A stretch of 64,000 bases of DNA from Ignavibacteria bacterium (GTDB lineage Bacteria; Bacteroidota; Ignavibacteria; Kapaibacteriales; Kapaibacteriaceae), in assembly GCA_947495975.1 (NCBI GenBank), contig CANMBE010000009.1, positions 14,560 through 78,559 of the forward strand, written 5' to 3'. Below are positions 28,538 through 62,790 of the stretch, one piece after another. Below the pieces are notes generated by a model. It ran no database searches. It saw only the letters and a program-made list of their open reading frames with translations, and was not told the DNA's origin. The number at the start of each line of letters is the position of its first letter. The stretch's first letter is position 1. The position numbers and the translations under genes are program-made.

Positions 28538-29298
28538 AGCCTTACTTGAACCATAAACGTAAAGCTCATGTGGTAGACGATACTTTCGCCTGACTCATTG
28601 AGCGAAACTGGGGTCAAAAGCTCTCCGCGGCCACCTTCAGACGTGGGCCGTTCATCACGTCCAATGAGATTCATTGCTCCCCAGCCAATGCTGGTATTCA
28701 CAAAGACGGGATAGTAGATTTCACCTTCGAGTCCCAGACGTACTAGTCCACCAAGGCGTAATGCAGAGGGTTTACCATTGAATTCATCGCCTTGTGTAAT
28801 TGGTTCACCTTCAATGATTACAACACCAGAGCGGGTGATTGTGTTCTCGCCAACACTCAACACCCGTGCTTCAACGCCTAGGTATGCACGTGCAAATGCC
28901 CAAGGAAACTCTACAAAGGACCATTCAAAACCCGTGAGCCCCGTCCACAATGTATTCTGATGTGTAACGCGGTACGTGAATGATTCACCTTTAATGCTCT
29001 GCGATCCCTTAAATGAATAGAAGTCAACACCCAGTGGAATACGGAATTTCTTCTGCTTGTCTAAATCCGCGTAGGCACGAAATCCCCAGCCCATTTGTGC
29101 GCCATCAAAGGCTCCACCAAACGTGTTTGTGGCAGATGAGGTATCCTCTCCGCCAGCGATGCGGAATACTGCAGGATTGTTATTCGTAATCCAATCTGTG
29201 GAAATCCCGGTTGCTACACGGAAACGTACCTGGGCTTCAACTGAGACAGCTGCCAGGATTGTTAGGACGAGCAAGAGTAGATGGTGTTTACGATTCAT
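28534..29298 (-). CDS. Outer-membrane beta-barrel protein
   Basis: SVEA|Q signal; alternating strands; terminal FMVQVRL. Confidence 0.65.
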   Translation of the reverse strand: MNRKHHLLLLVLTILAAVSVEAQVRFRVATGISTDWITNNNPAVFRIAGGEDTSSATNTFGGAFDGAQMGWGFRAYADLDKQKKFRIPLGVDFYSFKGSQSIKGESFTYRVTHQNTLWTGLTGFEWSFVEFPWAFARAYLGVEARVLSVGENTITRSGVVIIEGEPITQGDEFNGKPSALRLGGLVRLGLEGEIYYPVFVNTSIGWGAMNLIGRDERPTSEGGRGELLTPVSLNESGESIVYHMSFTFMVQVRL

Positions 29299-30550: not shown

Positions 30551-31330
30551 TTATCGGCGTACAATGCTTTTGTGTATCACATTGCCGTTCGGAAGGAGCA
30601 CTCGAACAACGTAGAGTCCAATGGCCGCGTTGGTAAGGTTGAGTATATCATGACACGACGTAATGGTCTTTTGCTCAACGAGTGCGCCCTGTGTGGACAT
30701 AACTGATATTGATGATCCATCAACCATACCATCGAAGTATACCATGTCACTTGTTGGGTTCGGATACATATGTAGTTCAGAGCTTGCGTCTTCTTCTACA
30801 CTCGTTGTTGTGCCGTTATACCACACCAACACCTTCATGCGCCTAATTGCCGGGTTGTCTGTGCTGTACGATGCACCCGGTTCCATCTTCACTTTGATAA
30901 AGTTGTTAGGGAAGTCAGTAAGTGCATCTGTAAGGTATGCCGAATCTACGTGAACGGGAAAAGAGTTTCTCCATGTCACATTAAGCCGTCCTCCGTCCCA
31001 AAGTACGTTTACGTCGTAGTCCTCCCTGAATTGCACATTTGGTACAAGACGTCGAATGTCTTTTGGGCTCATCCACAAATAGTCGGAAGAAGGTGGAACC
31101 GTATAGACAACGTGCACCCCCGCCGGAGGCGGTATTGACGGTATTTCGCTTTCACCCAAGGCTGTATCTACTTCTGCTGTTCCCAGGGGATGAGCTGCAA
31201 ACGTAAACGTAAAGCTCTTACTTCCAATTGGAGTTACGTTAACAAACGTCATTGGAAACTCAACCATCTGTGCCACTACGGTGCACGAGAGTATGAGAGT
31301 CATAACAAACGTAGCGATGAGACGAAACAT
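30551..31330 (-). CDS. Small T9SS cargo (259 aa) with one 'ELPPxP'-like domain
   Basis: TVVA|Q signal; VDTALGESEIPSIPPPAG; CTD MYPNPTSD...QGALV...GLYVVRV...KSIVR. Confidence 0.75.
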   Translation of the reverse strand: MFRLIATFVMTLILSCTVVAQMVEFPMTFVNVTPIGSKSFTFTFAAHPLGTAEVDTALGESEIPSIPPPAGVHVVYTVPPSSDYLWMSPKDIRRLVPNVQFREDYDVNVLWDGGRLNVTWRNSFPVHVDSAYLTDALTDFPNNFIKVKMEPGASYSTDNPAIRRMKVLVWYNGTTTSVEEDASSELHMYPNPTSDMVYFDGMVDGSSISVMSTQGALVEQKTITSCHDILNLTNAAIGLYVVRVLLPNGNVIHKSIVRR

Positions 31331-31345
31331 GTTTGAACCTATCCC

Positions 31346-31384
31346 AAAAAAGAAAGGGCAGCAGTAACCTGCTGCCCTTTTCTT
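31346..31384 (-). terminator. Intrinsic terminator after the 1035-aa gene
   Basis: Perfect 12-bp stem AAAGGGCAGCAG/CTGCTGCCCTTT (31353-31364/31369-31380), 4-nt loop, U-rich tail on the minus strand. Confidence 0.85.
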
Positions 31385-31404
31385 AATAATTCAATCCGAA
31401 CTCT

Positions 31405-34400
31405 TTAGCGAACGATTGACACCGAGCTTGTTGCCGTTGTGCCATTAAGTGTGACCTTAACGATGTAGCGACCTTGAGCAAGAGCGGCTGTATTCATATC
31501 GAAGCCATAGATACCGGCGGATTTTTCATCGTTAACGATGGTTGAGACAAGTTGTCCAACTGCATCGTACACAGAAACATTTACCTGACCCGCTTGTGGC
31601 AGTGTTACGTTCACCATACCAACATTGCTGGCTGGATTAGGCGATACAGATACCGTAAGCGAAGTAACGTCTGTTTCTTGTCCGTTGAGGCGAATGTATG
31701 GTGTGCGAGCGTCCGTAATTGTGATCGTGTTGTTACGACCAGCTACGATTGTACCAAGAACCTGACCAGAGATCGGATTCGTTACTACATACGAACGACT
31801 TGCATTGTTAACCGTTACCGAGATTGGGAACGTTACACCTTGCAATTGAATCATCGGGTTCTCATCATCATTGATGTACGTCTGATCAGAGAAGCGCACG
31901 TCAAAGAGATTGTTTGGTGGTGGTGGTGGCAATTCAAACACATTACGTGCCTCAAGTGAACCTTGCTTGGCTATGAAGACTTCACCGGTCTTCTCATCAT
32001 TGTCACTAATCGTAACACGTGTTGAGTTTGATGTAATGATGTCTCGTACGCCAGAGAAGTTTACGCCACTCTTGCCAAGTGTACCGCAACACATCGATAG
32101 ATATGCTTGACCACTAATCTTCATCCAATAGCCGAGTCCCGGGATGATTTCACTCACAGCTTGATATCCACGACCAGTTACATATCCGTAGATGTCGCCA
32201 ACAATTGCTGGGAATGCACCTGATCCGAATGGAAGCAGGGTTACGTTTTGCGTTGATGTTGGTGAGGAAAGCGAACCAATCGTGTTCCAACCATCATACA
32301 TACGTGTAGGGAAGATCTGATCGTTGATGTTGCGAATGCGCGAACCAGCAACCGTCTTGTCTAGATCGTCAGAGTACTTCACAAAGTAGCCAATACCAGG
32401 AGCAACGTTAATATCGTTTGCCTGATATGAGTTCTGGGTGAACTTGATCGGGGTATTGAGGGCGTTCTTAAAGACGTCCTTCCAATAGCTCGAAGAAGGA
32501 TTTACAGGAACAGAAAGGAGGTTCCAGCCCTTACTAATTACAGGGAACAGAGCAACCTTCGGAAGTGTGTATTCAATAACGAATGCATCAATGTCTGCAT
32601 CACGAATAGTGAATGACTGCTTCGTTCCACCCAGGACTGTACCTTGAAGCATGTTTACGTTAAAACGTGAACCGTTAAGAATGTCACGGATGTACAGGTC
32701 TGAACTTGGTGTAAACTCATCAGTATCCCATGATACAACCACTGGATAGTTAAGCGGGCTTCCAGCGTTGAATTTACATGTGTATTGGATTGTTGTGTCT
32801 GTGTAAATCGAACGGATGTCGCGCGACGAACCTTTTGGTCGTTGGGCAGATGCAGTCCAGAGATCACCAAGACCATACTGATATATATCAGCGCCATCTT
32901 TATCCTTTGGATACCAGCGTGCGCCGAACGAGTTCAGCGGAGTTGCATATACTGTTTCACCAAAGAGTGTATCAACGAATTCTGTAGCACGGTTGCCTAC
33001 TCCGAACGTAATAAATGTACGCTCAAGTGGACTATTCGAGTTACGGATATCAAGCGTTACACCACGGCCAAGAAACTCTTGACCACGTTGCCAATTATTG
33101 TTCTCGTCGAAGATGTTCGGCTCGTATGGCGTGCGGAAGTAAATGAACGTGACTTTAACACGAACTGGTGTTACATCAAGCGATGTAGACTTGAAAGAGA
33201 TATAGCCTACATACGTGCCGGTAACTTCTTGATCATCTCCGTTTGGAAGCTCATTAGGATCACAAATGATGCGGAAATTCAGATCTCGCTGACCTACCGT
33301 TGGATCACTAAATGGAGTTACACCCAGTGTTGTACCAAGAATACCTTTGTCCATGTATTGGATGTATCCTTCGCGCACTGGCTGTGCAAACGGATTAATC
33401 TCGCCTTGGCCGCCCTTGAGGAACGACTTGAACTTGAGCCACTTCGAATCAGACTGAACAACGATTTCGTAGGCACGAGTACCTGTAACCGTGTTGATCA
33501 CGTCTATATCGCGTGTTCCAAGACCACTTGGTTGATCATCGTAGTTGCTACCGTAGTCAATCGTAATAGGATCAACAACGAACCACTGTGAACCACCAGA
33601 TTGATTAACTGAGTCTACGAGTCGGAATGCTGGATTAGAAACGTTCGTGAATGACAAACGTGGAGAAATGTCTGTTACTTCCAGCCAAATCATACCCGGC
33701 TTTGAAGGACGGAGCGGATCGCGAATTTGCTCTTGTCCAAGACCATCAGTGAAGTAGTTATCTACACCACCAAGACCAGCAAATTCACCCGGAGCACCGT
33801 CACCTGGGAATGCAAGTTCGCGTCCCATTTGGAAATCGTTGTAGTACAAGGTATCACTCGTAAGAATGATTGGTGTACGTGAGCTTTCTTGATTGAGCGA
33901 CGGGTTGGCAACAACTCTGAAGCGCAAATAGATGAGCTCTGTAAATGGACGTTGATCGCATGGTTGCGAAACATCGCCTGTTTGAGGTAGAGCTCTCGAT
34001 GAAACGCCGGTAACCAATGCGCGCTTGCCACGAAGACGGTTCTGAACCGGAGCAGCGATTACACTTTGAAATGTTGTGTCACGAGCAACGAACACCGTGT
34101 ATTCAAAATCACGACCTAGGCAACCTAGTGGTGAAAATTGTGGGCCACGATTAGGGCCATTCTTATCAACGCCAATCATTTCAAGAGCCGTGCTGTCATA
34201 CTGCACTTTAAACTTAAAGCTGTAGATCGGGAAGGCCTTGTACTCAGATGTTGAGCGCCAACAGTTTTTGATGAAGACCGGAACAAGAAGTTCGCGGTCA
34301 CCATTCGAACCACGGCTTGAAGTCCAGATGCGACCATCAGGATAATATGTTTGGTTCCATCCACCACCAGAACCTGTCAGCGAGAGCGTCGGCAGCTCGG

Positions 34401-34512
34401 GCTTGTTCGTTTGTGCTTGAAGCACTTGCGAGCCGAAGCTGATCAATGCTGCAAGCAGGAGAACAACGCCGAGCTTGGCGTGGCCACTCCAAAGAGCATA
34501 TTGACGATTCAT
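31405..34512 (-). CDS. T9SS cargo (about 1035 aa): N-terminal cohesin-like domain, Ig-like domain, two ELPP-type domains, CTD
   Basis: Start moved to MNRQ (GAGGA upstream); VLQA|Q; LLVPVFIKN...YSFKFKVQYDSTAL...LIYLRFRV cohesin-like; SKGWNLLSVPV/DGWNTIGS repeats; VSPNPASN...YDAVGQLV...GRYIVKV CTD. Confidence 0.75.
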   Translation of the reverse strand: MNRQYALWSGHAKLGVVLLLAALISFGSQVLQAQTNKPELPTLSLTGSGGGWNQTYYPDGRIWTSSRGSNGDRELLVPVFIKNCWRSTSEYKAFPIYSFKFKVQYDSTALEMIGVDKNGPNRGPQFSPLGCLGRDFEYTVFVARDTTFQSVIAAPVQNRLRGKRALVTGVSSRALPQTGDVSQPCDQRPFTELIYLRFRVVANPSLNQESSRTPIILTSDTLYYNDFQMGRELAFPGDGAPGEFAGLGGVDNYFTDGLGQEQIRDPLRPSKPGMIWLEVTDISPRLSFTNVSNPAFRLVDSVNQSGGSQWFVVDPITIDYGSNYDDQPSGLGTRDIDVINTVTGTRAYEIVVQSDSKWLKFKSFLKGGQGEINPFAQPVREGYIQYMDKGILGTTLGVTPFSDPTVGQRDLNFRIICDPNELPNGDDQEVTGTYVGYISFKSTSLDVTPVRVKVTFIYFRTPYEPNIFDENNNWQRGQEFLGRGVTLDIRNSNSPLERTFITFGVGNRATEFVDTLFGETVYATPLNSFGARWYPKDKDGADIYQYGLGDLWTASAQRPKGSSRDIRSIYTDTTIQYTCKFNAGSPLNYPVVVSWDTDEFTPSSDLYIRDILNGSRFNVNMLQGTVLGGTKQSFTIRDADIDAFVIEYTLPKVALFPVISKGWNLLSVPVNPSSSYWKDVFKNALNTPIKFTQNSYQANDINVAPGIGYFVKYSDDLDKTVAGSRIRNINDQIFPTRMYDGWNTIGSLSSPTSTQNVTLLPFGSGAFPAIVGDIYGYVTGRGYQAVSEIIPGLGYWMKISGQAYLSMCCGTLGKSGVNFSGVRDIITSNSTRVTISDNDEKTGEVFIAKQGSLEARNVFELPPPPPNNLFDVRFSDQTYINDDENPMIQLQGVTFPISVTVNNASRSYVVTNPISGQVLGTIVAGRNNTITITDARTPYIRLNGQETDVTSLTVSVSPNPASNVGMVNVTLPQAGQVNVSVYDAVGQLVSTIVNDEKSAGIYGFDMNTAALAQGRYIVKVTLNGTTATSSVSIVR

Positions 34513-34547
34513 AGGAAAATCCTCAGATGAGTTGATCAAGAGATTCT

Positions 34548-35690
34548 TCATTTCATTTCCATTGTAACTGTTCTTTTCTTGCCACAGCGACTTACAACAA
34601 AGTAAAGGCCATGTGGAAGACCATGCATCGATAAAAACGTTTCATTCGTTAGTTGATCGCTTGTTGAACCAACAAGCTGACCCATTGCGTTGAAAACATT
34701 TATGCTATTCGTCTGTCCATGGTCACAATAACATCTTGCTATCTGATCGATAATCAGAAGATTATTATTGCGTTCATCGGCAGAGGATGAAACACGTACG
34801 GTTGGGTTTTCAGTTTTGATCACTACACTGTCAGTCAGCTTCGGCCAAACACACGTACAAGAATCCTGAATTGAAAGCTTGGAAGTAATCAAGACCTTTT
34901 CGTTGAGACTCGTAGTAACATTTCGGAAGGTTGCTTCTATCCTTGGCTGCGCATTCCCACTTTGTTTAAACGCTACATGAAGTTCGCCGTTACTACGCTC
35001 TGTACGTAGGATAGTTGCGCCTGTCATTTCAATCAATGTCACAATCGCTTTTGATGTATCACTGTTGTTGATTGTTGCGATTGCTGAAATATTTGATAGA
35101 CCTGGAAGCCGCACATCAAACGCCACCATACCAACACTATCATTCCCAAGAATTATAACACTGTCTTCTTCAATCCACATACCTACATCATTTCTCATTT
35201 TCGCAGCTGCTATTGAAATAATCGGCTCGTTCTTAAAAACGGTGACGAGACGTTTAAATTCACTGTTGAAACTTGGTGGCCAAGGAATAGACAAAGTGTC
35301 TAGATCGGAGCAGTTTCCAGCAAAGTTTCCAGCTACAGCAAATACCGGCTTGTCTCCCACCATAGGTGTGATGATGTTAAAACCTGCAATCCTCATCTCT
35401 CCTTTAACAACAAGGTTCATTGTTGGCTTAAAGTCGAGATTCGCAGAAAGAGTACCTTCTGTGAGCAAATCAATCGGATGAGTGATTGATGAGTCATACC
35501 CAATCGTAATGTCAAAGGACATGAGGCTATCTCGGGAGGTTATCCTCCCTAGTGTTGGAGCGATAAGCCATCGCCGTTCCGAAGAACACACGTCAACGAT
35601 ACGTAAGGAACGAACCGTCATCGTGTCCTGAGCGGCGAGGTTGCTGGCCGTCATAAAGACGGCCAGCATACACATCACCAATTTTTTCAT
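34548..35690 (-). CDS. T9SS cargo (380 aa) with one clear and one degenerate cohesin-like domain
   Basis: NLAA|Q; SLMSFDITIGYDSS...TEGTLS...GEMRIAGF...GDKPVFAV; degenerate CTD VFNAMGQLV...HGLYFVV. Confidence 0.7.
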   Translation of the reverse strand: MKKLVMCMLAVFMTASNLAAQDTMTVRSLRIVDVCSSERRWLIAPTLGRITSRDSLMSFDITIGYDSSITHPIDLLTEGTLSANLDFKPTMNLVVKGEMRIAGFNIITPMVGDKPVFAVAGNFAGNCSDLDTLSIPWPPSFNSEFKRLVTVFKNEPIISIAAAKMRNDVGMWIEEDSVIILGNDSVGMVAFDVRLPGLSNISAIATINNSDTSKAIVTLIEMTGATILRTERSNGELHVAFKQSGNAQPRIEATFRNVTTSLNEKVLITSKLSIQDSCTCVWPKLTDSVVIKTENPTVRVSSSADERNNNLLIIDQIARCYCDHGQTNSINVFNAMGQLVGSTSDQLTNETFLSMHGLPHGLYFVVSRCGKKRTVTMEMK

Positions 35691-35713
35691 CTTGACTATT
35701 GCAGCACGTTCGA

Positions 35714-37765
35714 TTAACGAACTACTGTAACCATGCCTGACGCATTTACTCCAGCACCATTAACACGAATCACGTATGTACCAGGAGCAACAAGTGTGCC
35801 TGTTACGTCCGTTCCGTTCCATGTTGTTGAGAGGGTACCAGCTTGAGCAGCCGCATCAAAAATTGTGTTCACGAGTTTGCCAAACGTATCATAGACACGA
35901 ACGACAACTGAACCAGCTTCTGAAAGTGTCACTGCCATTGACATGTTTACAGACATTGGATTTGGATAGACCAAAACGGCTGATCCAGATTCATTCTCTA
36001 CCATGCTAATAGTGTGTGAACCAACTCCAGCTTCGTTGAAACGAATGTTCGAGAAGTTGAATGTTGACTTTTCTTTCAATGTTACGAATGCAACAGGTTG
36101 TGATACATCAAATGTGCCATTACCTGAAACCACAGCGATGTCTACACTCTTGTCAATTGCAACGGCGCTATTCTCGTTCATCACAGGTGTGACGTCTACG
36201 ATTTCACCATCGGTCTCAAAGCGAATACCAAAAGCACCATTATGGTTGGCATTCATAAAAACAGGAATGCGAACAAGGCCGTTACCAATCTTCGATGGCT
36301 CACCAAATGCTACATCAGTTGCAGCCTTCTTGGTGTCTACCATGCCAAAGTCTGGTCCGGTTGTGTCATTATCATAAATCCACGGTAGATATGGAAGTCT
36401 ACCTGAGATGTAACGCATGATAAGACCAGCGTCATACTCAGTTACTTCATAATAGATCTGGTTCAAGCTGCTAACGTCCGGAGCTTTACCTGAAGTACCA
36501 TAAAGCCCATCGCCTTCATACATAACGCGAACAACTTGCTTTCCTGTGTTTGCACCAACACCCTGGCCAGGGAAGTACTGCTCATTGTCGATTGTACGAC
36601 GCCAGATAACAATCCTTCCGCCCAACGTTGAATCAGCAGAGAAATCTCTCTTGAGCTTCGTGAAATAGTAACGACCTGAGTGATTTACATCACCTTGGTA
36701 CGCTTGACGCTTCCACACAGAATCAAGGGGTTTTTTCTTTACAATAGAACTCATGATGACGCGAGCATCATTTGCAGTTACTCGGCGGTTCTGTGGTAGA
36801 CCATCATGACGCTGACCAGCAGCTGCAGATGTATCTGAGTCACCAAAACCCCACATATCAAATGTGAGATACACGATCGAGTTAAAGCGAATACGTGCAT
36901 CCGAGCGTCCGCCAGAAGGCTGCCATGCTGATGTTGAATCAGTACGCGTGTTTCCTCCTAATGCTGGCTTCCAAAAAAGTCCGTTCCAGAAGTCTGCAAG
37001 GTATCCAGAGAATCCACCATCGCCTTTGATACCAACCGTTGCACCACGTGTTACAACTGTTGTATTCGTAGTGTTTGGATTTCCACCAACTTGACCATAG
37101 GCAAGTTCAATTGCACCTTGGTTGTTGTTCGCTTGACCACCGAGATAAAGACGAGCTTGGAAGTTTCCAACGCTTGAATTTACCGTGGCTACATTAATGT
37201 TCAGATTTTTCCACTGAACAATCAAGCAAGGACGAGTTGGCTTCATCGTATCGCAATTCTCATCACGATCTACATCAATGACCCACGATATCTCAGATGA
37301 CATATAGCCAGCGTTAAAATCGTTTCCTGTACGAATGCGGTGATCGCCCCAGTATGGTGCGATTACATTGCTAGGATAAGACGACGAATTGGTGAAGAGG
37401 CCTTGCGGCTGCTTTGCAGAAACAAGTCTCGTGTTATCAAACGTCAAAAATCCATTAATACTAACAAACACACCCGTGTAGAGGCGTCCGTTATAATTGT
37501 ACGATACACCGGAAGGGAACTGGATGAAGGCATAGCCATCATCGAGGTCATTCACGAATGTAGGTGCAAGAACGAATTGCGATGGAGCGAGTACTGTCTT
37601 GTTCAAGAGCGAAGTAGGGCAGCTGTTGATATCCCGGTATGGAAGACCAACGACGAGTTCTGGCTGGTGGAACTGATTGAAAATCTGTTGCGCCATACCA
37701 TCCACTGCACCGATCGCGATTGAACAGAGTACAATCGCCGCAGCAATAAATACCTGTTTCTTCAT
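35714..37765 (-). CDS. T9SS cargo (683 aa): NIDO/nidogen-like domain, dockerin-like domain with insertions, cohesin-like domain, FlgD-Ig/CTD
   Basis: DGMA|Q; DDGYAFI...VSINGFLTF...NVIAPYWGD...IVQWKN...FQARLY (NIDO-like); VTANDARVIM, GDVNHSG, VTEYDAGLIMRYISG (dockerin); LVRIPVF; VYPNPMS...WNGTD...PGTYVIRV; GGAGT upstream. Confidence 0.75.
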   Translation of the reverse strand: MKKQVFIAAAIVLCSIAIGAVDGMAQQIFNQFHQPELVVGLPYRDINSCPTSLLNKTVLAPSQFVLAPTFVNDLDDGYAFIQFPSGVSYNYNGRLYTGVFVSINGFLTFDNTRLVSAKQPQGLFTNSSSYPSNVIAPYWGDHRIRTGNDFNAGYMSSEISWVIDVDRDENCDTMKPTRPCLIVQWKNLNINVATVNSSVGNFQARLYLGGQANNNQGAIELAYGQVGGNPNTTNTTVVTRGATVGIKGDGGFSGYLADFWNGLFWKPALGGNTRTDSTSAWQPSGGRSDARIRFNSIVYLTFDMWGFGDSDTSAAAGQRHDGLPQNRRVTANDARVIMSSIVKKKPLDSVWKRQAYQGDVNHSGRYYFTKLKRDFSADSTLGGRIVIWRRTIDNEQYFPGQGVGANTGKQVVRVMYEGDGLYGTSGKAPDVSSLNQIYYEVTEYDAGLIMRYISGRLPYLPWIYDNDTTGPDFGMVDTKKAATDVAFGEPSKIGNGLVRIPVFMNANHNGAFGIRFETDGEIVDVTPVMNENSAVAIDKSVDIAVVSGNGTFDVSQPVAFVTLKEKSTFNFSNIRFNEAGVGSHTISMVENESGSAVLVYPNPMSVNMSMAVTLSEAGSVVVRVYDTFGKLVNTIFDAAAQAGTLSTTWNGTDVTGTLVAPGTYVIRVNGAGVNASGMVTVVR

Positions 37766-37807
37766 AGATACTCCAAGATTTACAACTTGTTGTTATTCGT
37801 GACGGTA

Positions 37808-37837
37808 GATTGGGGCCGGAAATTTTCCGACCCCATC
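37808..37837 (-). promoter_or_regulatory. Intercistronic stem-loop without a U-tail
   Basis: Minus-strand RNA GGGGUCGGAA-AAU-UUCCGGCCCC: 10 bp, fully paired only on the transcribed strand (one G.U pair). Confidence 0.6.
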
Positions 37838-37846
37838 GTTGAAGCT

Positions 37847-40800
37847 TTAGCGGACGAACACAACTTGTTGCGTGGCTGAATGAACACCGTCTGTTACACG
37901 AATTGTGTACAAGCCGCTGGACATCATAACACCGTTAGTCAAGCCGTTCCATTCGATCGTGTGGCTGCCTGCCGCAAACATGTCGTTTGCAAGAGTTGCT
38001 ACACGTGTTCCGATCGCATTATAGATCTCAACAGTAACATTCGTTGCCGAAGGCACATTAAATGTGATTGCCGTTGAAGTAGAGAATGGATTTGGAGCTG
38101 TGTTTGTGATTGCAAGGTCATTCATACTTCCAGCATCTTCATCACCCACGTCCGACGTGAAGTCGTAGACGATAATGAAGCCACGGATAGCATCACGACT
38201 GATGATGAGCGTGTCACATGAGCTGCCTGTTGTTCCACTTGTTCGGTGTTGAATGTCGGAGGCCGAACGACCTTCGCCAGTCTTCATGTTGTAAGAGAAC
38301 AAAGCGCCATTAGACTGATCATCACGAATGTAGTAAGACCCTGGGTTCGTTGCTGATACCGCAGGAATGTTTGTACGACACCATGAGATGAATACCGGAT
38401 AGTTCACTGAGCTCTGTCCATTTTCACCACCAGCTTGGAAACGAGCACGATAGATCGCTTCACCTGGTTGTGTATTCTCAAATGGGTAGATACTGCGTGT
38501 AATACCATTTCTATTCGGTATTGTCCAACGAGCATCAAAGATGTCGATGTATGGTACCGGAGGTAGTTCGTATTCGCAATAGTTAGAGTCAAGCTTACCA
38601 TAGCTACCTAGGTCATAACCAGTTGTAGCAATCTCTACATCTCCAATACCCCACTGAAGTGTCTGGAATGCACCAAGATTGTTTTCAACGCGAACGTCAA
38701 CAACAAAACGTGTTTTCGCAGATACTGCAACTTCATATACAAGTTCGCTCTTCACACCCTGGCGGTCTGTTACGACTACTCGGATCTTAATGCGTCCGTT
38801 TACTACGTTGCCCTGAAGGTCAGGTGTACTAATCACTACCGTCTGCGTGTCAGCAATTGGGCTTGACAAGCGAGCAGGATTGAATGTCCACGAACCTGCA
38901 GGCTCAAGAACCTCGAACGTAAGCTGCTCGTTATCAGCTTCTTTACGACGAAGATCGATGTCAGTAACACGAAGTGTGTCCGTGTATGGTTGCCCTTGCT
39001 CTACACACTTAACGATAGGTGAAGCTAGCAGACGTGGATCGTGATTAACAGCACGAACCGTGAGGTTGTACGTACGCACGTCAACAAGTTGACCAGCATC
39101 CGTTACAACAACCGTTACGAGAACTGTTGTATCAGCATATGGAAGATCAGTTACGCGTGGTGTGCCATAAAGCAGGCCACTCGTTGGGTTAATCTTGAGC
39201 CACCTTGGCGTTGTCTTACGTGTAGCATCAAGCGTAATGTTACCAGCTTCTGGGAAGTAAGGATCGATTGCGATTGAGTCACGCGTCTCATCAATATAGA
39301 TGAGTTCAAAAGACTGTGCTTGTCCAAAGTTTGGATCGTAGACCTTGATACGACGATTCGAATCAAGAAGGTCAACATTGTAATCAATATCCTCGATAGC
39401 TTCTTCTAGAGTCGCATCGAGAAGTTGTGGTTGAACGTTAACAAAGAGACGACGTGTAAGTGTGTTAAGTCCACCGTGACCGTCATTAACGACCACTGTC
39501 ATAACCGTGTCAGTATTCAAGTCACCATTGACTGGATTACCTGGATTGAAATCATTGACTGGCTTCAGAATTTCGCGTGCTTCAGTTCCCGGAATGCGAA
39601 CCTCAATGCGACCGCGTGTTGTGAAGTCTTCGGCGAACTGATCACGCGCTCCAGCATTCAAATAACGTCGCATGTAGCGTGTTGAAAGCCAAATAGGACG
39701 CGCTTGTAGAACTTCATCAATGACTACATCTGATGGATTCTCGCGTACCGTTGTTGATAGGAAGCCATATGCGGTCTTTCCATAACGGAAGTCCCACACA
39801 CCGAACTGCTGAACAACTGCACGGTTGGTATCAACTGCAGCCATATCCTCAAACTCATCATCTGTGTTTACGTCAAGACGGAAACGAAGTGAGTCCGTAA
39901 GGTTGGCAACAAAATGGACGTTTAGATCATCTGGTTGCTCATTAGCAGGCACATTGTATACTTCGTCAAGGATCGCATTTGGCTGCACAAGACGGCGACC
40001 AACACGAGACGTAGTGCTCATCATGCGAAGCGTATCGAGATACGTTCCAGTTGCTTTATCGTATGATCCGGCATCAGTTGTTGTTGGGTCAAGAACGATT
40101 GTGGTATCACCCTTCAACATTCCTTGATACGTAACATTTTGAGCCGCGTTAGCACGGTAATTCCAAAGGAAGCGTGGCAACGAGTCTACAACTTGGATAC
40201 GGAAACGATACGAGCTTGAGTCCAACCAGCCAAAGTTTACAGTGTCCTGTTGTAGGAAACGTGCATTGGTGTTATCTGGATTCCGAGCTGCAAGTGGAAT
40301 TGAGTTGTTGTCATACTCTTCAGCGTGGAAATACGATGGGTAGGTATACAACCAACGTGAGATAACGTCCTCGCCAAAACCAGACTTGCGGAGAGAATCT
40401 ACAAGCTCAGGTGATGGAGGGAAGTTCTTCGTTACAACTTCAACTTCTTCGCCACCTGGGACGATGTATGGATTAATTGGACGACCACGTAGCATGCGAT
40501 AGCCACTTGCACCCCAACGTGGGTTGTTTGTGCTTGCTGTTGTGATAAGTGTGTCGCGCAACCAATAGCGTAGTGCAGAATTACCAGTAGTGATATTCCA
40601 GAAATATGACAGCCGCGCATTAACCGTAGAGTCAATTATAACGCGTGGATCATAGAACTTGTTAACGTCAACTGCTGTGATCGTAAAGATTGAATCACGC
40701 TCATATACATCACGACCAGGAATCGGAACACCGCTAGCGTCTGATGGGTAGCTTATTGGCTCGTTGAACCAACTACCTTTACCACCACCGCGAGGCGATT

Positions 40801-43800
40801 GCGCCGCAGTAATTGGTGTGTAAAGACGATTCTCCGTAACAAACACGCGATTGCGCATTTCTGGATGAATAAGTGGTGATTTTCCAAGTGTGTCAGCTGA
40901 ACCAGTGAACTGAGGAGGAACAGTGTTGTTGCCTACAGTGAAGGTCAGACCTCCACTAATAGCACTAACAACGCCATCTTTCCAAAGAATTGTACGAGAT
41001 ACAACGGTTACTTGGTCACCCTCAATTACCGGAAGAGCGCGATGACGCTCTCCTCCAAAGTATGTCTCCAGACCACCATCACCATCTACGGCGTTAGAAG
41101 TAGGAAGTGTTGGGCTATTTCCAAGACGGAAGTTCGGTCCACCGAGTTCACCTAGGATGGTTGAACCTTCCCACTTACGACCTTGCATAGCTGAAGAATC
41201 TTCAGCAGTTGCATTGTCAGCTAGGAAAGATAGAAGCGTCGCTCCCGTACCATACGTTGCAAGACCTTCGTACGCACGACGCATGTTAGGATCTCCACCG
41301 TTGGAAGAATCTGGCACGAGCTCTATGCGTGAACGGAAGTTCGTATCTGTAAGGCCTGTTTGTGTGAGGTTTGTACGGATATAATCACCCGTACGCTCGT
41401 TGATCACAAAGAAGACTGTCTCGTTAATTGCACGCGGGTCATTGTTGTTTACTTCGGCAGTGCCACTGTAATCGGCACGAGCCTCGAGGAACAACGGATA
41501 TCCGATTGGATGATCACCGATAAACTCTGTTTGGACAGCAGCTATATCTGCGAACTTCTCAGCATCGAATGGGTTGCGTGTTGTACGCTTTACGTACTTG
41601 TTGTAGGACGGCATGAGCGCGTCTGTGTAAACCATAAGGTTCGGCGGAACACCAACTGCAAAGTCTTCGATTTGCGCCATACGACGCATCGAATAGTCCG
41701 CTGTTTTGATGTCTGTTCCCTTATCAAAGATGTCATAAATACGACCTTGAAGAAGGAGCGTATCAGGAATCGTCCAGATAGGAATTGGCTTATAGTTATA
41801 GCGCCACGTTGACTCAAATGGACCTTGCTCAGTTGCGTTGTTCGTTGCCTGACGTAGGAAGCGCATGTGCGTCTTACCATTACCTGCAATGAAGAATGTT
41901 TCCTGAGTGCGTCCAAATGATGATGCGTTACCAGATGTAGGAAGAATCGTGTTTACGCTTGCTTCCGTACGTCCCCAGTAGTTACCACGAAGTGTGTCTA
42001 CTCCACCAAAACCAGTACCTGTTGTACCAGCAAGTACACCCTTGGTGTCTTGTGCATCAGGGAGGCGAATGATAAAGCGAGCATCGTTACCATAGATAGA
42101 ATTTGCAGCAAAACTGTAGGTAGTCCACGGAAGTGGTCCACTTACTTCACCGTACAAAATTGCACCAGCTAGATCACTCGAAGCAGGGTTCTCGGCATCA
42201 AGAAGCGGACCCTGAATCGAATCGTTTGCACGACCACGATCAGAAATCGCCTTGTTACCAGTGATAAGACAGCGTGCGAATGCAAGCTTAAGATCATAGT
42301 TGTCAGAATAAACAGCGGCACCTGTATAGGCAGTGTTGTTCTGCATACGTACACGATCAAAAGACACAGTGTCAACACGGACGCGGATACTATCGAGGAT
42401 ATACAATGCACCACCAAGACCAGTTCCGTTTTCACGGATTGTTGTACCAGGGTGAGTTACACGAATATTTCCTTGTTGTGTTGCTCCGCTACCTTGACGG
42501 TCTACGTTCTCAACGGCTACGTTGTCATAGAAACGCGTAAGCATGCGTTCGTCTGCACGTGGGCTTGTTGTTTGGAAGGTAAACACATCATTGCGAGTTG
42601 TGTTCGAAATCGCAACGCCCGTAGCATTATAGGTGATATCATCGAGGTCGGTTACAAAGAAGCGCTTGCGTGTTAACGTATCTGGAGTTACGACGGCTAT
42701 AGCACCACCGTTACCATACCAAGCCTTGTTAGCACGGAACTCAACACCCTTAACTACGTTAAGGTCGGCGTTGATTACATAGAGAGCTCCACCACCACGA
42801 ACATGCTGCTTAATTGAATCAGCAACTTCTCCAACACGGTTGTTGATGAAGTTTCCACGCACGTAACGTAGGTTACGACGCCAAATTGGCAAGTTCAATT
42901 GGCGGCTAACATCAATGTTAACAGCAATAGCACCACCAGAGAAGTTAGCAGTGTTGTTCTGGAATTCTACGCCGTAGTTCGTGCCGTAGATCCACAGTGG
43001 ACCGCTTACTCCACCAGCTCCGTACATAATCATGTTACGTTCAGTGAAGACAGCTCCACCGTCAACGCTTGCACGATTATCACGGAATTTGATGCCAAAA
43101 CCATAATTGCGAGCTGTGATGATTCCGTCCGAACCACCAATGTATGGCGACGCGAGCGTATCATTTACACCTGCAGCCACATAAACAGCTCCGCCACGTG
43201 CGGACGTGTTGGAGAGGAAATGTGTAGGCGGGTTATTATCCAGGTTACCACGGATCTGAATTTGCAATGCTTTTGAGCTGGCGTAGATACCGCCACCTTG
43301 CGAGAAATTGCCAATTGTATTGACCGGATCCGAAGTGACATCCGTGATAAACGGAGTTGTAGTTTTATTGGAAGTATAACGACCGGCGAAGATCACACTT
43401 GTTTGATCAGCTACGTGAACAGCTCCACCACGTGCACCAAGGGTGCGCACGGTGCTATAAACTGCAATGCTGTCTACTATCGTGCTATCTACTCTCTTTG
43501 ATGGCTGACGGTTCTCAGCATAGTTGCTACTGAACTCGATTGTGTCCTTGCCTTGGAAATCGTTAATACCAAAACCAACGATCATTGGCATACGACCGGA
43601 GATGTATACAGCTCCACCGGAAGATTCGTTCTTTTGTGAACGACCCGTGCTGGTGAAAATTTTAGCCGGACGCTGAGCGTCTGTTACTACTCGGATATTG
43701 CCAATGCGGACAGTATCCACATCAGATAGCAACGTGCGATTCGATGTAAAGCGAATCTGACGAATGCGGCCGAGGTACAAGGCTAGACGTGCATCATCGA

Positions 43801-44923
43801 TCGACTGGCGATCAGAATCTGTAAATGTCTCAGCCGCTACATCATATATAAGGTCCGTAATACGAAGACCCTGATTGAGCGGCTGTGCCGTCAATTGGCT
43901 TGTAAGGAACGGATTAACAGTTGGCGAATATTGCGGAAGCGCGTTTATCGTTGTCTGCGAGATTATTGGCCAAAGTTGCAGGGATGAGCCAGCAAATTGA
44001 TCAACAGGTGCTTGCAGAATCTGAAGCGCTCCACCGCGGTAGCGTGCCATGTTGTTGCGGAACGTACAACCAACAATCCATGTGCGAGACGAGAACGTCG
44101 TTATCGCACCACCACCACCGTTAGAGCAGCGGAGGAGAGCATCGTTTGCCGTTTGGGCTTGTGCACCAGAGAATCCTGTACCTGCATTGTTGACGAGATA
44201 CACCGGTTTGTTATCAACCGTTGTGTCCTTGCGGAAGTTCAGGAAGTCTACATCGCGGAAGAACGCTGCGCGCGAACCAGGAAGCACAACAATGTGTCCC
44301 CATTCACGCGAGAAGTTGTTTACGTCGCCTGCAACGAATAAAATTCGGGCTGGACGCACGTGGATCGCCTGAGTCGTTGGTCGGAACCAAGGACTGAGGC
44401 GGATCGCAGATATGACTGTACCAAGTTCTATACGGGCAGCCTTGTACATTATAGCCTTGGCTGGCGTTAGACCTTGAAGGTTCGGATTCGAACCTAAGTC
44501 CACGTTGAAGATCGTAGGATACTTCGACGGGTGAATGGTCGGCTCCGTAGCAATCGTGGAAGACACGACGCCTGGTGCTCCAAAGTACGTTGGGTCATCA
44601 TAACCCGTGTACGGAGGAAACAACGGATTCGCTGCATTTGGATTATACGTCGCAGACGCACGTCCATCAGCAATGATACGGCCACCAGTTGAGTCTACTA
44701 ACCGACCATTCGGTAGAAACTCAACTCGGGTACCGGGTTCGATCAGAAGCGTTCCACCTACGGTGTACGATCCACTGATGCGATAAATGGTGTCACGTAC
44801 GAATACGCGAACCGACCCCGGAGGAATACTACCACGAACCTCCACATAACTCTGTGATAGAGCTACATTAAATGCTGTGGTTAGCACAAACAGCAAGCTG
44901 CTTAGACGAAACCAACGTTGCAT
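37847..44923 (-). CDS. Giant T9SS-secreted adhesin-like protein (about 2358 aa): Pmp-like beta-helix, cadherin/He_PIG Ig domains, ELPP domain, CTD
   Basis: Start moved to MQRWF (GGAGG-TTGT-ATG); VALS|Q; 10 GGA[ILV] and 9 FxxN motifs; NYWG helix end; WLKINPTSGLLYGTP, VNDGHGG, VNHDP cadherin-like; TAPNPFS...YNAIG...GLYTIRV CTD. Confidence 0.85.
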   Translation of the reverse strand: MQRWFRLSSLLFVLTTAFNVALSQSYVEVRGSIPPGSVRVFVRDTIYRISGSYTVGGTLLIEPGTRVEFLPNGRLVDSTGGRIIADGRASATYNPNAANPLFPPYTGYDDPTYFGAPGVVSSTIATEPTIHPSKYPTIFNVDLGSNPNLQGLTPAKAIMYKAARIELGTVISAIRLSPWFRPTTQAIHVRPARILFVAGDVNNFSREWGHIVVLPGSRAAFFRDVDFLNFRKDTTVDNKPVYLVNNAGTGFSGAQAQTANDALLRCSNGGGGAITTFSSRTWIVGCTFRNNMARYRGGALQILQAPVDQFAGSSLQLWPIISQTTINALPQYSPTVNPFLTSQLTAQPLNQGLRITDLIYDVAAETFTDSDRQSIDDARLALYLGRIRQIRFTSNRTLLSDVDTVRIGNIRVVTDAQRPAKIFTSTGRSQKNESSGGAVYISGRMPMIVGFGINDFQGKDTIEFSSNYAENRQPSKRVDSTIVDSIAVYSTVRTLGARGGAVHVADQTSVIFAGRYTSNKTTTPFITDVTSDPVNTIGNFSQGGGIYASSKALQIQIRGNLDNNPPTHFLSNTSARGGAVYVAAGVNDTLASPYIGGSDGIITARNYGFGIKFRDNRASVDGGAVFTERNMIMYGAGGVSGPLWIYGTNYGVEFQNNTANFSGGAIAVNIDVSRQLNLPIWRRNLRYVRGNFINNRVGEVADSIKQHVRGGGALYVINADLNVVKGVEFRANKAWYGNGGAIAVVTPDTLTRKRFFVTDLDDITYNATGVAISNTTRNDVFTFQTTSPRADERMLTRFYDNVAVENVDRQGSGATQQGNIRVTHPGTTIRENGTGLGGALYILDSIRVRVDTVSFDRVRMQNNTAYTGAAVYSDNYDLKLAFARCLITGNKAISDRGRANDSIQGPLLDAENPASSDLAGAILYGEVSGPLPWTTYSFAANSIYGNDARFIIRLPDAQDTKGVLAGTTGTGFGGVDTLRGNYWGRTEASVNTILPTSGNASSFGRTQETFFIAGNGKTHMRFLRQATNNATEQGPFESTWRYNYKPIPIWTIPDTLLLQGRIYDIFDKGTDIKTADYSMRRMAQIEDFAVGVPPNLMVYTDALMPSYNKYVKRTTRNPFDAEKFADIAAVQTEFIGDHPIGYPLFLEARADYSGTAEVNNNDPRAINETVFFVINERTGDYIRTNLTQTGLTDTNFRSRIELVPDSSNGGDPNMRRAYEGLATYGTGATLLSFLADNATAEDSSAMQGRKWEGSTILGELGGPNFRLGNSPTLPTSNAVDGDGGLETYFGGERHRALPVIEGDQVTVVSRTILWKDGVVSAISGGLTFTVGNNTVPPQFTGSADTLGKSPLIHPEMRNRVFVTENRLYTPITAAQSPRGGGKGSWFNEPISYPSDASGVPIPGRDVYERDSIFTITAVDVNKFYDPRVIIDSTVNARLSYFWNITTGNSALRYWLRDTLITTASTNNPRWGASGYRMLRGRPINPYIVPGGEEVEVVTKNFPPSPELVDSLRKSGFGEDVISRWLYTYPSYFHAEEYDNNSIPLAARNPDNTNARFLQQDTVNFGWLDSSSYRFRIQVVDSLPRFLWNYRANAAQNVTYQGMLKGDTTIVLDPTTTDAGSYDKATGTYLDTLRMMSTTSRVGRRLVQPNAILDEVYNVPANEQPDDLNVHFVANLTDSLRFRLDVNTDDEFEDMAAVDTNRAVVQQFGVWDFRYGKTAYGFLSTTVRENPSDVVIDEVLQARPIWLSTRYMRRYLNAGARDQFAEDFTTRGRIEVRIPGTEAREILKPVNDFNPGNPVNGDLNTDTVMTVVVNDGHGGLNTLTRRLFVNVQPQLLDATLEEAIEDIDYNVDLLDSNRRIKVYDPNFGQAQSFELIYIDETRDSIAIDPYFPEAGNITLDATRKTTPRWLKINPTSGLLYGTPRVTDLPYADTTVLVTVVVTDAGQLVDVRTYNLTVRAVNHDPRLLASPIVKCVEQGQPYTDTLRVTDIDLRRKEADNEQLTFEVLEPAGSWTFNPARLSSPIADTQTVVISTPDLQGNVVNGRIKIRVVVTDRQGVKSELVYEVAVSAKTRFVVDVRVENNLGAFQTLQWGIGDVEIATTGYDLGSYGKLDSNYCEYELPPVPYIDIFDARWTIPNRNGITRSIYPFENTQPGEAIYRARFQAGGENGQSSVNYPVFISWCRTNIPAVSATNPGSYYIRDDQSNGALFSYNMKTGEGRSASDIQHRTSGTTGSSCDTLIISRDAIRGFIIVYDFTSDVGDEDAGSMNDLAITNTAPNPFSTSTAITFNVPSATNVTVEIYNAIGTRVATLANDMFAAGSHTIEWNGLTNGVMMSSGLYTIRVTDGVHSATQQVVFVR

Positions 44924-45012
44924 ACAACCTCCAGTCGTAAAATTCTTATGCTTTAATTCTTTCACTTTTTTCAGCTTCATATAGGGGAAAAGGCGGTACA
45001 TGCCGGAGTATG

Positions 45013-45693
45013 CTAATCAATTGCCATGCCAAGCCTTGCCAAACCCCCGCGAGCGGAGCCGGCAACCTCTGACATTTCAAACTTTTTTACAACCAACGTG
45101 TACAATTGAATAGCCTTTTCCTTGTTTCCAGACTTCTCAAAACAAAGTGCAGCGTGATAGTAACAGCGATCCTCTAGGCCACTCTTAGCGCCCTGGGCTC
45201 CAGCTTGTTCATATAATGATGCAGCGCTCGAAAAATCGTTTGAGGCCTCCTTGCATGACGCTAGTCCCTGCAATGCTCCGATTTCAACAATCTGGGCATC
45301 CGAAGCCTGCGCGCGCTCAAATTGCACAACAGCTTCGGTAGGACGACCAAGATTCAAAAGTGCAGTGCCAGCCATTAAGGCTGCAACTGACCCCGCATCT
45401 GTTCCGGCGTATTGCTCACTGATCTCCAGAAGCCCCATTACTTTGTCTGCTCCAACAGCAGGGATTGAATCGCCCGAGAGAGCTTTTGAAAATTCTCCCA
45501 TGTCAAACGTCATCCGTACTCGCGATAGCTGAGTGGATGCCTCAATATTTTGTTCGATCGCATTAGAAGCGTACCACCAATAACCGCCAATGGCAAACGC
45601 AATTACAACAACTACGCCCACAACGGCCTTCCATTGTGTTCGTATGCTGTCCGCAGCTGTCTGCAGTGCTGATTCCGATTGTTCTGTGCTCAT
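45013..45693 (-). CDS. Membrane-anchored TPR protein (YfgM-like)
   Basis: Single N-terminal TM (VVGVVVVIAFAIGGYWWY) followed by several TPR-like helix pairs. Confidence 0.75.
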   Translation of the reverse strand: MSTEQSESALQTAADSIRTQWKAVVGVVVVIAFAIGGYWWYASNAIEQNIEASTQLSRVRMTFDMGEFSKALSGDSIPAVGADKVMGLLEISEQYAGTDAGSVAALMAGTALLNLGRPTEAVVQFERAQASDAQIVEIGALQGLASCKEASNDFSSAASLYEQAGAQGAKSGLEDRCYYHAALCFEKSGNKEKAIQLYTLVVKKFEMSEVAGSARGGLARLGMAID

Positions 45694-62714: not shown

Positions 62715-62790
62715 CACAACCTCTGTAAGTGATAGAGAATTGCGCCCTCTTCAATAATCATGAAAGGGGCGTCAGGAGGTTGTGTGTTGA
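62711..62790 (-). promoter_or_regulatory. 5' leader able to sequester the RBS and start codon of the 1093-aa gene
   Basis: CACAACCTC (62784-62776) is exactly complementary to GAGGTTGTG (62723-62715); it encloses an imperfect 12-bp hairpin (62742-62772). Confidence 0.5.

Follow-up and report, generated by a model that had tools for sequence, protein, structure and literature searches.

Cohesin and dockerin modules pair to hold Gram-positive cellulosomes together, the role for which this pairing is best known; its many occurrences outside cellulosomes are, to our knowledge, almost all uncharacterised. The existence of such modules in non-cellulosomal settings is well documented according to Peer et al. 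(2009), as cited in PMC8542988. In the Cloacimonadota, Candidatus Stygibacter was proposed in silico to combine a tandem-cohesin scaffoldin anchored by a C-terminal domain (CTD) with dockerin-bearing glycoside hydrolases (GH18 and GH57) and peptidases (PMC8542988). Here, a stretch of 64,000 nucleotides (the window) from an Ignavibacteria bacterium (Kapaibacteriales, Kapaibacteriaceae; assembly GCA_947495975.1, contig CANMBE010000009.1, positions 14,560-78,559 of the forward strand) was analysed, in which a minus-strand gene cluster encodes five surface proteins with type IX secretion system (T9SS) CTDs. The reading that we favour, at a probability of roughly 0.45, is that this locus encodes a class-wide T9SS-anchored, non-catalytic surface assembly of the Kapabacteria, whose parts are joined by cohesin/dockerin-like contacts. 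Such an assembly, fixed in its composition, fits best because the proteins have common export signals, are strictly co-inherited, contain shared and cohesin-family modules as well as a constrained dockerin-like element, and comprise no enzymes. The parts list for a cohesin/dockerin-type assembly is plausibly present and is co-inherited. Six co-oriented open reading frames (ORFs) occupy window positions 30551-45693, the gene of a tetratricopeptide repeat (TPR) protein first, followed by the five surface-protein genes:

45013-45693, minus strand: TPR protein of 226 aa with one N-terminal transmembrane helix and a YfgM-like architecture
37847-45001, minus strand: giant T9SS cargo with a PMP-repeat beta-helix, an immunoglobulin (Ig)-like He_PIG domain, module X and a CTD
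35714-37765, minus strand: p683, with a signal peptide, a NIDO-like domain, a split dockerin-like module, a cohesin-like beta-sandwich and a CTD
34548-35690, minus strand: p380, with a signal peptide, a cohesin domain, a second (possibly cohesin-like) beta-sandwich and a CTD
31405-34551, minus strand: p1048, with a cohesin-like N-domain, module X, a partial second module X and a CTD
30551-31330, minus strand: p259, with a signal peptide, module X (aa 21-170; 30821-31270) and a CTD (30554-30769)

Compared with clostridial cellulosomes (CipA cohesins 1aoh and 1anu, XynY dockerin 1ohz_B), the cluster is alike in that the N-terminal domains of p380 and p1048 (p380-N and p1048-N) are remote cohesin homologues, that p683 has a duplicated helix/loop motif of the dockerin type, and that the components are anchored at the cell surface. 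As in adaptor scaffoldins, p683 joins a dockerin-like and a cohesin-like module. Instead of the S-layer homology (SLH) or sortase anchoring of the Gram-positive wall, the Kapabacteria anchor is a T9SS CTD on the outer membrane. Neither dockerin-bearing enzymes nor a carbohydrate-binding module (CBM) were detected in the cluster, whose modules all lie below the Pfam thresholds and include only one dockerin-like module, with both Ca2+ loops split. Candidatus Stygibacter also belongs to the FCB group and combines cohesins with a T9SS-type C-terminal domain, likewise by in silico inference only; however, its modules are InterPro-positive, tandem and paired with enzymes (PMC8542988), whereas those of the Kapabacteria are cryptic and non-enzymatic, with one or two cohesins per protein, a split dockerin and a fixed class-wide block. 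The cohesin-like X82 modules of Clostridium perfringens GH84 enzymes (2jh2, 2o4e, 2w1n) share a non-cellulose context and are the top single-domain matches of the p683 beta-sandwich (p683-C), but they recruit toxins and glycosidases, whereas the Kapabacteria set is enzyme-free, encoded by a conserved operon and found in a diderm. Two database proteins, P0368 and P0389, combine Pfam-positive cohesins with cadherin-like domains and a T9SS CTD; their module family and secretion signal are those of the cluster, and they serve as bridging sequences that tie p380-N to the cohesin family, but their canonical cohesins, 3-4 in tandem, are accompanied by cadherin-like, Big_9 or CBM domains, and they lie outside the conserved block. 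Finally, the giant shares with Chlamydia Pmp proteins the PMP repeats above the Pfam threshold, although those proteins are type V autotransporters and the giant, with its Ig-like domains, module X and CTD, is cargo of the T9SS. In the literature on Kapabacteria and T9SS and on cohesin/dockerin and T9SS, no description of this cluster was found. The novelty put forward in an earlier note on this DNA, which knew of no such complex in the lineage, is tempered by the Stygibacter prediction (PMC8542988) and by the ordinary Pfam-positive cohesin/T9SS-CTD proteins P0368 and P0389. Because the modules occur in an enzyme-free, T9SS-exported block of every examined related genome, in a diderm and uncultivated class, the block is a well-defined case for asking what non-cellulosomal cohesins do.

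The giant ORF encodes 2384 aa, or 2358 aa if started at Met27 (44923), and that of p1048 encodes 1048 aa, or 1035 aa if started at Met14 (34512), some database gene calls placing this start 13 codons downstream (1035 aa). Once such internal starts are used, the five co-oriented genes that the earlier note had placed after a TPR gene match the ORFs in length. According to the translations, read by eye, an N-terminal hydrophobic signal peptide ending in A-x-A/S is followed by Gln in all five proteins (5/5), and most orthologues of each protein also have Gln in this column. This is in line with the Bacteroidota 'Q-rule', i.e., Gln at +1 after signal-peptide cleavage. The T9SS type A CTD model TIGR04183 scored 31.8 bits in the giant, 28.4 in p683, 24.1 in p380, 35.6 in p1048 and 26.9 in p259, all above the NCBIfam cut-off of 23 bits, and these calls agree with Foldseek matches to the C-terminal regions of PorU/PorZ and with PDB matches to the CTD chains 8glj and 8glk. 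Both export features had been ascribed to each protein in the earlier note and are borne out here, as is the absence of glycoside hydrolases and proteases: Pfam and NCBIfam scans of the five proteins gave no glycoside hydrolase, peptidase or other catalytic family, and no dockerin-bearing catalytic subunit (glycoside hydrolase, carbohydrate esterase, polysaccharide lyase or peptidase) was found among them. Identities as PorU, PorZ or SprE were rejected, the NCBIfam matches spanning only the CTD or a TPR stretch, far below the cut-offs. Public annotation of the homologues is limited to "T9SS type A sorting domain-containing" or "hypothetical".

Four beta-sandwich domains of the cluster were considered as cohesins, the cohesin fold being a nine-stranded jelly-roll beta-sandwich:

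35223-35630, minus strand: cohesin-family N-domain of p380, p380-N (aa 21-156)
34803-35222, minus strand: middle beta-sandwich of p380, p380-M (aa 157-296), possibly a second, diverged cohesin
33772-34323, minus strand: cohesin-like N-domain of p1048, p1048-N (aa ~77-260; cohesin alignment only aa 77-138)
35996-36319, minus strand: cohesin-like beta-sandwich of p683, p683-C (aa 483-590), weakly supported

As judged from profile comparisons, p380-N, with which the mature protein begins, is a genuine, very diverged cohesin homologue and p1048-N, close to the mature N-terminus, is a cohesin homologue at least in its N-terminal part (first ~60 residues); both are placed in the family because the profile tests match them and do not match control beta-sandwich domains. 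A search of 1.84 billion representative proteins with a profile of the p380 N-domain only returned 270 proteins, most of them ~380-aa orthologues. The same profile retrieved P0368 (E=7e-12), P0388 (1e-10) and P0389 (1.6e-10), which according to Pfam contain 4-, 5- and 3-fold Cohesin repeats (E=5e-62, 2e-51 and 7e-21), and its matches coincide with these repeats in equal numbers and at the same profile positions. Besides, a hidden Markov model (HMM) of p1048-N matched every cohesin repeat of P0389 (full E=3.4e-10, 4-sequence test). A reference cohesin profile was then assembled from three PDB-verified CipA cohesins and nine Pfam-positive repeats of the P0368/P0388/P0389 set and compared by hhalign. 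It was matched by p380-N with P=1.3e-10 (probability 97%), a value to be read with the caveat that the nine repeats had been reached via p380-N's own profile, though Pfam independently calls them cohesins. For p1048-N, whose test is independent of the selection of the repeats, the comparison gave P=6.6e-7 (probability 92%, aa 77-138 only), and for p380-M P=1.6e-4 (probability 50%, 80 columns). As negative controls, four beta-sandwich domains from the same proteins gave P=0.03-0.35. A narrow profile of the three CipA cohesins was dropped as uninformative, hhalign returning short motif matches (P 0.005-0.03). From these data, p380-M and p683-C are possible cohesins. In an all-against-all hhalign comparison, the three cohesin-like domains were not shown to be mutually homologous, p380-N against p1048-N giving P=0.004 and p683-C matching neither. 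Of the three cohesin-like domains proposed earlier, the one in p380-N (~35270-35620) and the first ~60 residues of the one in p1048-N (~33835-34295) are retained, and the one in p683 (~36030-36280) is weakly supported.

Curated thresholds miss these cohesin- and dockerin-like modules. Cohesin (PF00963, gathering threshold 24.1 bits) was the sole Pfam match of the p1048 N-segment (14.7 bits, E=0.035, the family consensus likewise giving E=0.035) and of the p380-N consensus (13.7 bits, E=0.073). When homologues were scanned singly, it was matched by 1/33 of p380 (E=0.0053) and 6/40 of p1048 (best E=0.013), and neither Cohesin nor Dockerin_1 was matched by the 37 of p683; p683-C also had no Pfam match. 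When the six proteins were scanned directly with Pfam and NCBIfam, the only families recovered were CTD, FlgD_ig, PMP, He_PIG and TPR, with neither cohesin nor dockerin appearing at E<=1. Similarly, phmmer and profile hmmsearch of PDB sequences with p683, p380 and p1048 (family and p380-N-only profiles) gave no cohesin or dockerin and returned just FlgD-Ig, PorU, PorZ and CTD chains or noise. The AlphaFold2 (AF2) model of p380 has a mean predicted local distance difference test (pLDDT) score of 86.8 and three beta-sandwich domains, the middle one well predicted. The best single-domain Foldseek matches of p683-C were the C. perfringens cohesin-like structures 2jh2 (TM 0.53-0.56, root-mean-square deviation (rmsd) 4.2-4.6, ~130 columns) and 2o4e. 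Overall, p380 evolves fast (21-56% identity), its N-domain being its most conserved part; the corresponding HMM was found in 81/83 loci and stands directly after p683 in nine loci with coordinates listed. The p1048 family comprises 90 homologues at 28-100% identity.

The search with the p380 N-domain profile also returned a protein from outside the window, P0284 (2387 aa), in which 11 or more tandem repeats show weak matches to positions ~18-62 of this profile. Pfam annotates it with six DUF6242 domains, DUF5018 and a type B (CHU_C) CTD. Because of these weak matches, DUF6242 repeats may be related to the N-terminal half of cohesins.

The dockerin-like element is found in p683, a family of 233 homologues (35-97% identity), all full length (~680 aa) and from metagenome-assembled genomes (MAGs) labelled Kapabacteria or Ignavibacteria:

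36878-37684, minus strand: NIDO-like N-terminal domain of p683 (aa 28-296), with an invariant N-x-x-A-P-[FY]-W-G-D-H motif
36380-36853, minus strand: split dockerin-like module of p683 (aa 305-462), a two-repeat motif with two insertions

A type I dockerin consists of two contiguous repeats of ~22 residues, each with a 12-residue EF-hand-type Ca2+ loop and a helix. In p683, the motif G-D-x-[DN]-x-S...V-T-x-x-D-A-x-x-I-M-x-x-I occurs in two copies, its halves corresponding to positions 1-5 and 8-20 of the dockerin repeat, and two insertions, one of ~15 aa (314-328) and one of ~74 aa (367-440), break up the module. Against a gathering threshold of 22.9 bits, Dockerin_1 (PF00404) scored 12.9 bits (E=0.13) on the natural p683 consensus, aligning aa 27-66 to profile positions 7-43 of 57 (helix 1 to loop 2). 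After splicing out the inserts, a step designed with the dockerin hypothesis in mind, it became the top Pfam match of the consensus (19.6 bits, E=0.0011) and scored 14 bits (E=0.061) on the window sequence. Comparison with PDB-verified dockerins by hhalign gave P=7.8e-5 for the spliced segment and P=1.2e-4 for the natural middle segment, and the seven control profiles gave P>=0.19. The dockerin-like segments are the most conserved part of p683, with a majority frequency of 0.73-0.87 among 80 orthologues and of 0.49 in the inserts; their key residues are invariant across the class, and the split module was found in 83/83 loci. In the AF2 model of p683 (pLDDT 71), the N-domain (aa 30-295) is good, aa 300-480 are poor, and a beta-sandwich (aa 483-588) precedes the CTD; two helices are predicted in the dockerin region (331-343 and 443-453) at low confidence. 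Altogether, we regard aa 305-462 as probably a dockerin, a call made with some reserve because the splicing was driven by the hypothesis and the loops are non-canonical. What survives of the dockerin-like domain proposed earlier (~36400-36845) is thus a two-repeat motif with moderate profile support, below threshold and split by insertions. The NIDO model suggested at the same time (PF06119, cut-off 25 bits) gave weak matches below cut-off, namely 13.1 bits (E=0.096) on the window p683 and 23.6 bits (E=5.8e-5) on the family consensus, with matches in 8/37 homologues (best E=4.3e-4), whereas the CTD model TIGR04183 named alongside it was passed.

A second type of module, of ~150 aa and termed module X, is common to the giant, p1048 and p259 (profile comparison, E 4e-13 to 1e-9). 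Apart from the p259 copy, it is located as follows:

38165-38698, minus strand: module X of the giant (aa 2102-2279)
32569-33057, minus strand: module X of p1048 (aa 499-661)
31672-31938, minus strand: partial second module X of p1048 (aa 872-960), directly before the CTD

According to hhalign, the giant copy matches p259 aa 26-259 with E=4.4e-13 and p1048 aa 499-661 with E=6.4e-12, and the p1048 and p259 copies match each other with E=1.2e-9. Likewise, the module X HMMs of the giant and p259 match p1048 with E=1.3e-6 and E=1e-5. The partial copy is illustrated by a match of giant aa 2144-2384 to p1048 aa 872-1048 (E=1.3e-19), of which the CTD is a part, and by a short ELPPxP...FDxRF motif match. 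Module X stands directly before the CTD in the giant, in p259 and in the second p1048 copy. It had no match in Pfam (searched with consensus sequences), NCBIfam or PDB sequences, the searches returning only noise (protein G and HIV capsid at E ~0.3-0.6). On this profile evidence, module X is an undescribed domain family; the block itself provides a lineage marker for the Kapabacteria.

A scan of one genome per species recovered p683 relatives in 229 genomes, and 83 of these loci were examined for gene order by tblastn and HMM searches. In 83/83 loci, wherever the contig extends, the order was E1 dehydrogenase, TPR protein, giant, p683, p380, p1048, p259, glycosyltransferase family 2 (GT2) protein and 254-aa protein, down to 33% p683 identity and with one copy of each block gene per locus. 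The synteny across relatives that the earlier note had proposed to check is therefore present. The median intergenic gaps of -4 to 87 nt are operon-like. In an ATGA at 34548-34551, the upstream start codon of p1048 overlaps the p380 stop codon, and the median distance between the two genes is -4 nt in 62 loci; because this overlap occurs in the median locus, it suggests translational coupling of the two cohesin-bearing proteins. In close relatives, the giant, p683 and p1048 are conserved at 84, 81 and 85% identity versus 85% for the E1 dehydrogenase, while p380 and p259 evolve faster. Between p1048 and p259, a further element was detected:

31353-31380, minus strand: terminator-like hairpin with a 12-bp stem (7 GC) followed by a T-run

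The hairpin lies only 22 nt before the p259 start codon (13 nt counting the T-tail), and one stands at the same position in loci L005-L042 and others. Hairpins of at least -10 kcal/mol strength with a T-rich tail were found within 120 nt after p1048 in 52/73 loci, and the core GGGCAGCAG-N4-CTGCTGCCC is common to the twelve listed examples. The hairpin points to two transcription units, to attenuation, or to a 3' end that stabilises the giant-p683-p380-p1048 mRNA. A scan for sigma-70 promoters was set aside, its yield of sites being lower than in shuffled sequence; the promoters of Bacteroidota depart from the sigma-70 consensus. Many of the block-bearing contigs (L006, L014, L016, L022, L025, L027, L035, L050 and others) come from oddly labelled MAGs, assigned to Hyphomicrobiales, Patescibacteria, Chitinophaga pinensis, Bradyrhizobiaceae, Desulfobulbaceae or Didemnitutus; their record titles are unreliable as taxonomy or the bins contaminated.

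Several of the results weigh against an assembly based on cohesin/dockerin-like contacts. With the models PF00963 and PF00404, for which the earlier note had proposed a HMMER check, the gathering scores were reached nowhere in the cluster proteins. Against the reference cohesin profile, p683-C gave only a weak match (P=1.5e-3, probability 16%, 98 columns). Ca2+ binding and a dockerin fold of the p683 module are doubtful because both Ca2+-loop equivalents are interrupted by insertions, and the AF2 confidence in this region falls below 50-60. The conserved strong hairpin separates p259, GT2 and the putative barrel gene (the 254-aa protein) from the upstream genes. Because the housekeeping E1 dehydrogenase gene is also in conserved order, general collinearity, and not function, could account for some of the synteny, which slightly weakens the argument from gene order; this argument is strengthened, in turn, by the translational coupling and the domain-level conservation pattern. 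Finally, the whole-model Foldseek lists of p683 and p380 consist mainly of generic tandem Ig-like adhesins. AF2 predicts beta-sandwiches of a size suiting cohesins, but multi-domain Ig-like adhesins rank above cohesins in these lists, the cohesin-FN3 pair 2w1n being at rank 8 and the scaffoldin fragment 4fl4_C at rank 37 for p380; whole-model comparison is confounded by multi-domain alignments (rmsd 10-37 Å). The choice between generic Ig and cohesin folds, on which the earlier note had made its proposal depend, is consequently split: the structural lists lean toward Ig-like adhesins, whereas the profile tests place p380-N and p1048-N among cohesins.

These structural matches, which are of the MSCRAMM, pilin and integrin-type tandem Ig adhesin kind, also speak for five independent T9SS-anchored adhesins or surface proteins without mutual binding, whose modules would be spacers or binders of external ligands (glycans, other cells) and whose clustering would result from module duplication or shuffling and from co-regulation. 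The sharing of module X and of the CTD indeed points to duplication or shuffling within the cluster, the dockerin-like loops are disrupted by insertions, and PMP-repeat beta-helices and He_PIG domains are typical of adhesins such as Chlamydia Pmp. However, independent adhesins normally vary in copy number and sequence, whereas one copy of each is found here in fixed order in every examined locus. Moreover, the conservation among close relatives nears that of a housekeeping enzyme, and the surfaces under the strongest conservation are precisely those of the dockerin-like segments and of the cohesin N-domain. Independent adhesins are considered rather unlikely.

Under the favoured reading of a surface assembly, the proteins would cross the outer membrane through the T9SS after cleavage of their signal peptides, and their CTDs would be exchanged for a lipid anchor of the anionic lipopolysaccharide (A-LPS) type. 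The split dockerin-like EF-hand pair of p683 may then plug into the cohesin modules of p380 and/or p1048, while the copies of module X may mediate further contacts, either like-with-like or with a common partner. In this way, a complex with a defined set of components would form around the giant's beta-helix/Ig-like fibre of 2358 aa. The TPR protein encoded upstream, which is anchored in the membrane, may act as a periplasmic chaperone of the giant cargo; downstream, the GT2 protein and the putative barrel protein may modify or anchor the assembly. Because no enzyme domain is present, the output is presumed to be structural, i.e., adhesion, particle capture or an ordered surface coat. If the assembly were a device for particle capture or cell-cell adhesion, this would matter for the ecology of these bacteria, which are widespread in freshwater and mats. 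In its most far-reaching form, which we hold to be rather unlikely, the proposal is that the Kapabacteria class has a dedicated, enzyme-free, T9SS-anchored cohesin-dockerin machine, in which the split p683 dockerin docks on the cryptic cohesins in p380 and in p1048, with the giant fibre and p259 joined to them via module X, forming an outer-membrane organelle of fixed composition under housekeeping-like constraint and without counterpart in the described cellulosomal or T9SS systems.

The giant itself matches Chlam_PMP (PF02415) at 35.7 bits (Pfam cut-off 20.6), TIGR01376 at 15.6 bits (NCBIfam cut-off 15) and, at aa 1919-1982, He_PIG at 32.9 bits (Pfam cut-off 24), the TIGR04183 CTD being placed at aa 2303-2381. 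Its earlier description as a Pmp-like beta-helix adhesin is consistent with the Chlam_PMP and He_PIG scores. Identity to orthologues is 39-84%; of the 600 columns of aa 701-1300, 153 show the majority residue in 97% or more of the orthologues and count as near-invariant. The TPR protein matches several TPR families, three of them above the Pfam cut-offs (TPR_12, TPR_2 and TPR_6), and PF09976 (TPR_21) below cut-off over aa 20-175 (E=3.7e-4); a hydrophobic stretch at aa 23-41 was read in the translation. Its gene lies directly upstream of that of the giant in 65 loci (median gap 87 nt). Though syntenic everywhere, the TPR protein may act more generally, as a periplasmic or Sec-associated chaperone that does not belong specifically to the cluster. 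The upstream neighbours of the block are housekeeping genes (2-oxoacid dehydrogenase E1 component, aminotransferase and GatB), and further downstream lie additional glycosyltransferases and a DUF6588 protein. The block ends with:

29360-30529, minus strand: GT2 glycosyltransferase with two C-terminal transmembrane helices (Glycos_transf_2 E=1.4e-32)
28534-29298, minus strand: 254-aa secreted protein, possible outer-membrane beta-barrel, last conserved gene of the block

The GT2 protein has an Arg/Gln/Pro-rich, low-complexity basic N-terminus of ~75 aa and the architecture of GtrB/DPM1-like polyprenyl-phosphate glycosyltransferases; it is 54-89% identical to its orthologues and adjoins p259 in the loci extending that far (median gap 16 nt). 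T9SS-dependent S-layers exist in Bacteroidota, the TfsA/TfsB S-layer of Tannerella forsythia being T9SS-exported. By analogy, the block might encode an S-layer-like or envelope-stabilising coat needed by Kapabacteria cells, with lattice contacts other than cohesin-dockerin pairs and with GT2 for glycan modification. The syntenic GT2 and further glycosyltransferase genes immediately downstream, the type A CTD on all components, and a slowly evolving block present in single copy in every examined locus are consistent with such a coat. Nevertheless, Pfam, NCBIfam, PDB and Foldseek searches gave no sequence or fold match to known S-layer proteins, and a 2358-aa beta-helix fibre with five different subunits is untypical of a two-dimensional lattice, making this explanation quite improbable in our view.

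The 254-aa protein has a signal peptide followed by Gln, a column kept in 58/61 sequences, and an alternating beta-strand-like sequence. It is syntenic at 25-77% identity and is the last block gene wherever loci extend that far. When it was tested as PorT/OMP_b-brl_2, one orthologue matched OMP_b-brl_2 (E=0.04), and the window protein and five other orthologues had no match; it is possibly a small outer-membrane barrel of the PorT/OMP_b-brl_2-like type. The combination of a giant repetitive T9SS cargo gene, smaller and presumably co-transcribed accessory genes and, as the last gene of the block, that of a small putative outer-membrane barrel recalls the sprCDBF operon of Flavobacterium johnsoniae, and the block could by this analogy encode a gliding-motility set, with a mobile giant adhesin and accessories like SprB with SprC/SprD/SprF. 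However, NCBIfam gave only CTD-level matches to PorU, PorZ and PorW/SprE, with no full-length family above cut-off; SprB relies on a type B CTD and a PorP/SprF partner, but the CTDs here are of type A; and the barrel protein had no significant PorP/SprF or PorT match. A gliding set is accordingly seen as very improbable.

Elsewhere in the window, three large ORFs on the minus strand (12368-14128, 586 aa; 10334-12352, 672 aa; 59433-62717, 1094 aa) matched no Pfam family at E<=1e-5. The 586-aa ORF (12368-14128) is probably another T9SS cargo because it matches the CTD HMM of the cluster (E=6.8e-5). On the plus strand, positions 4441-5214 encode a 257-aa seven-helix protein in which the microbial rhodopsin motifs RYIDWILTVPLMCIE (a D-T-E triad of the proton-pump type) and NIGDAVNKIGFG (with the retinal Lys) were read by eye, supporting the earlier description of a rhodopsin-bearing organism.

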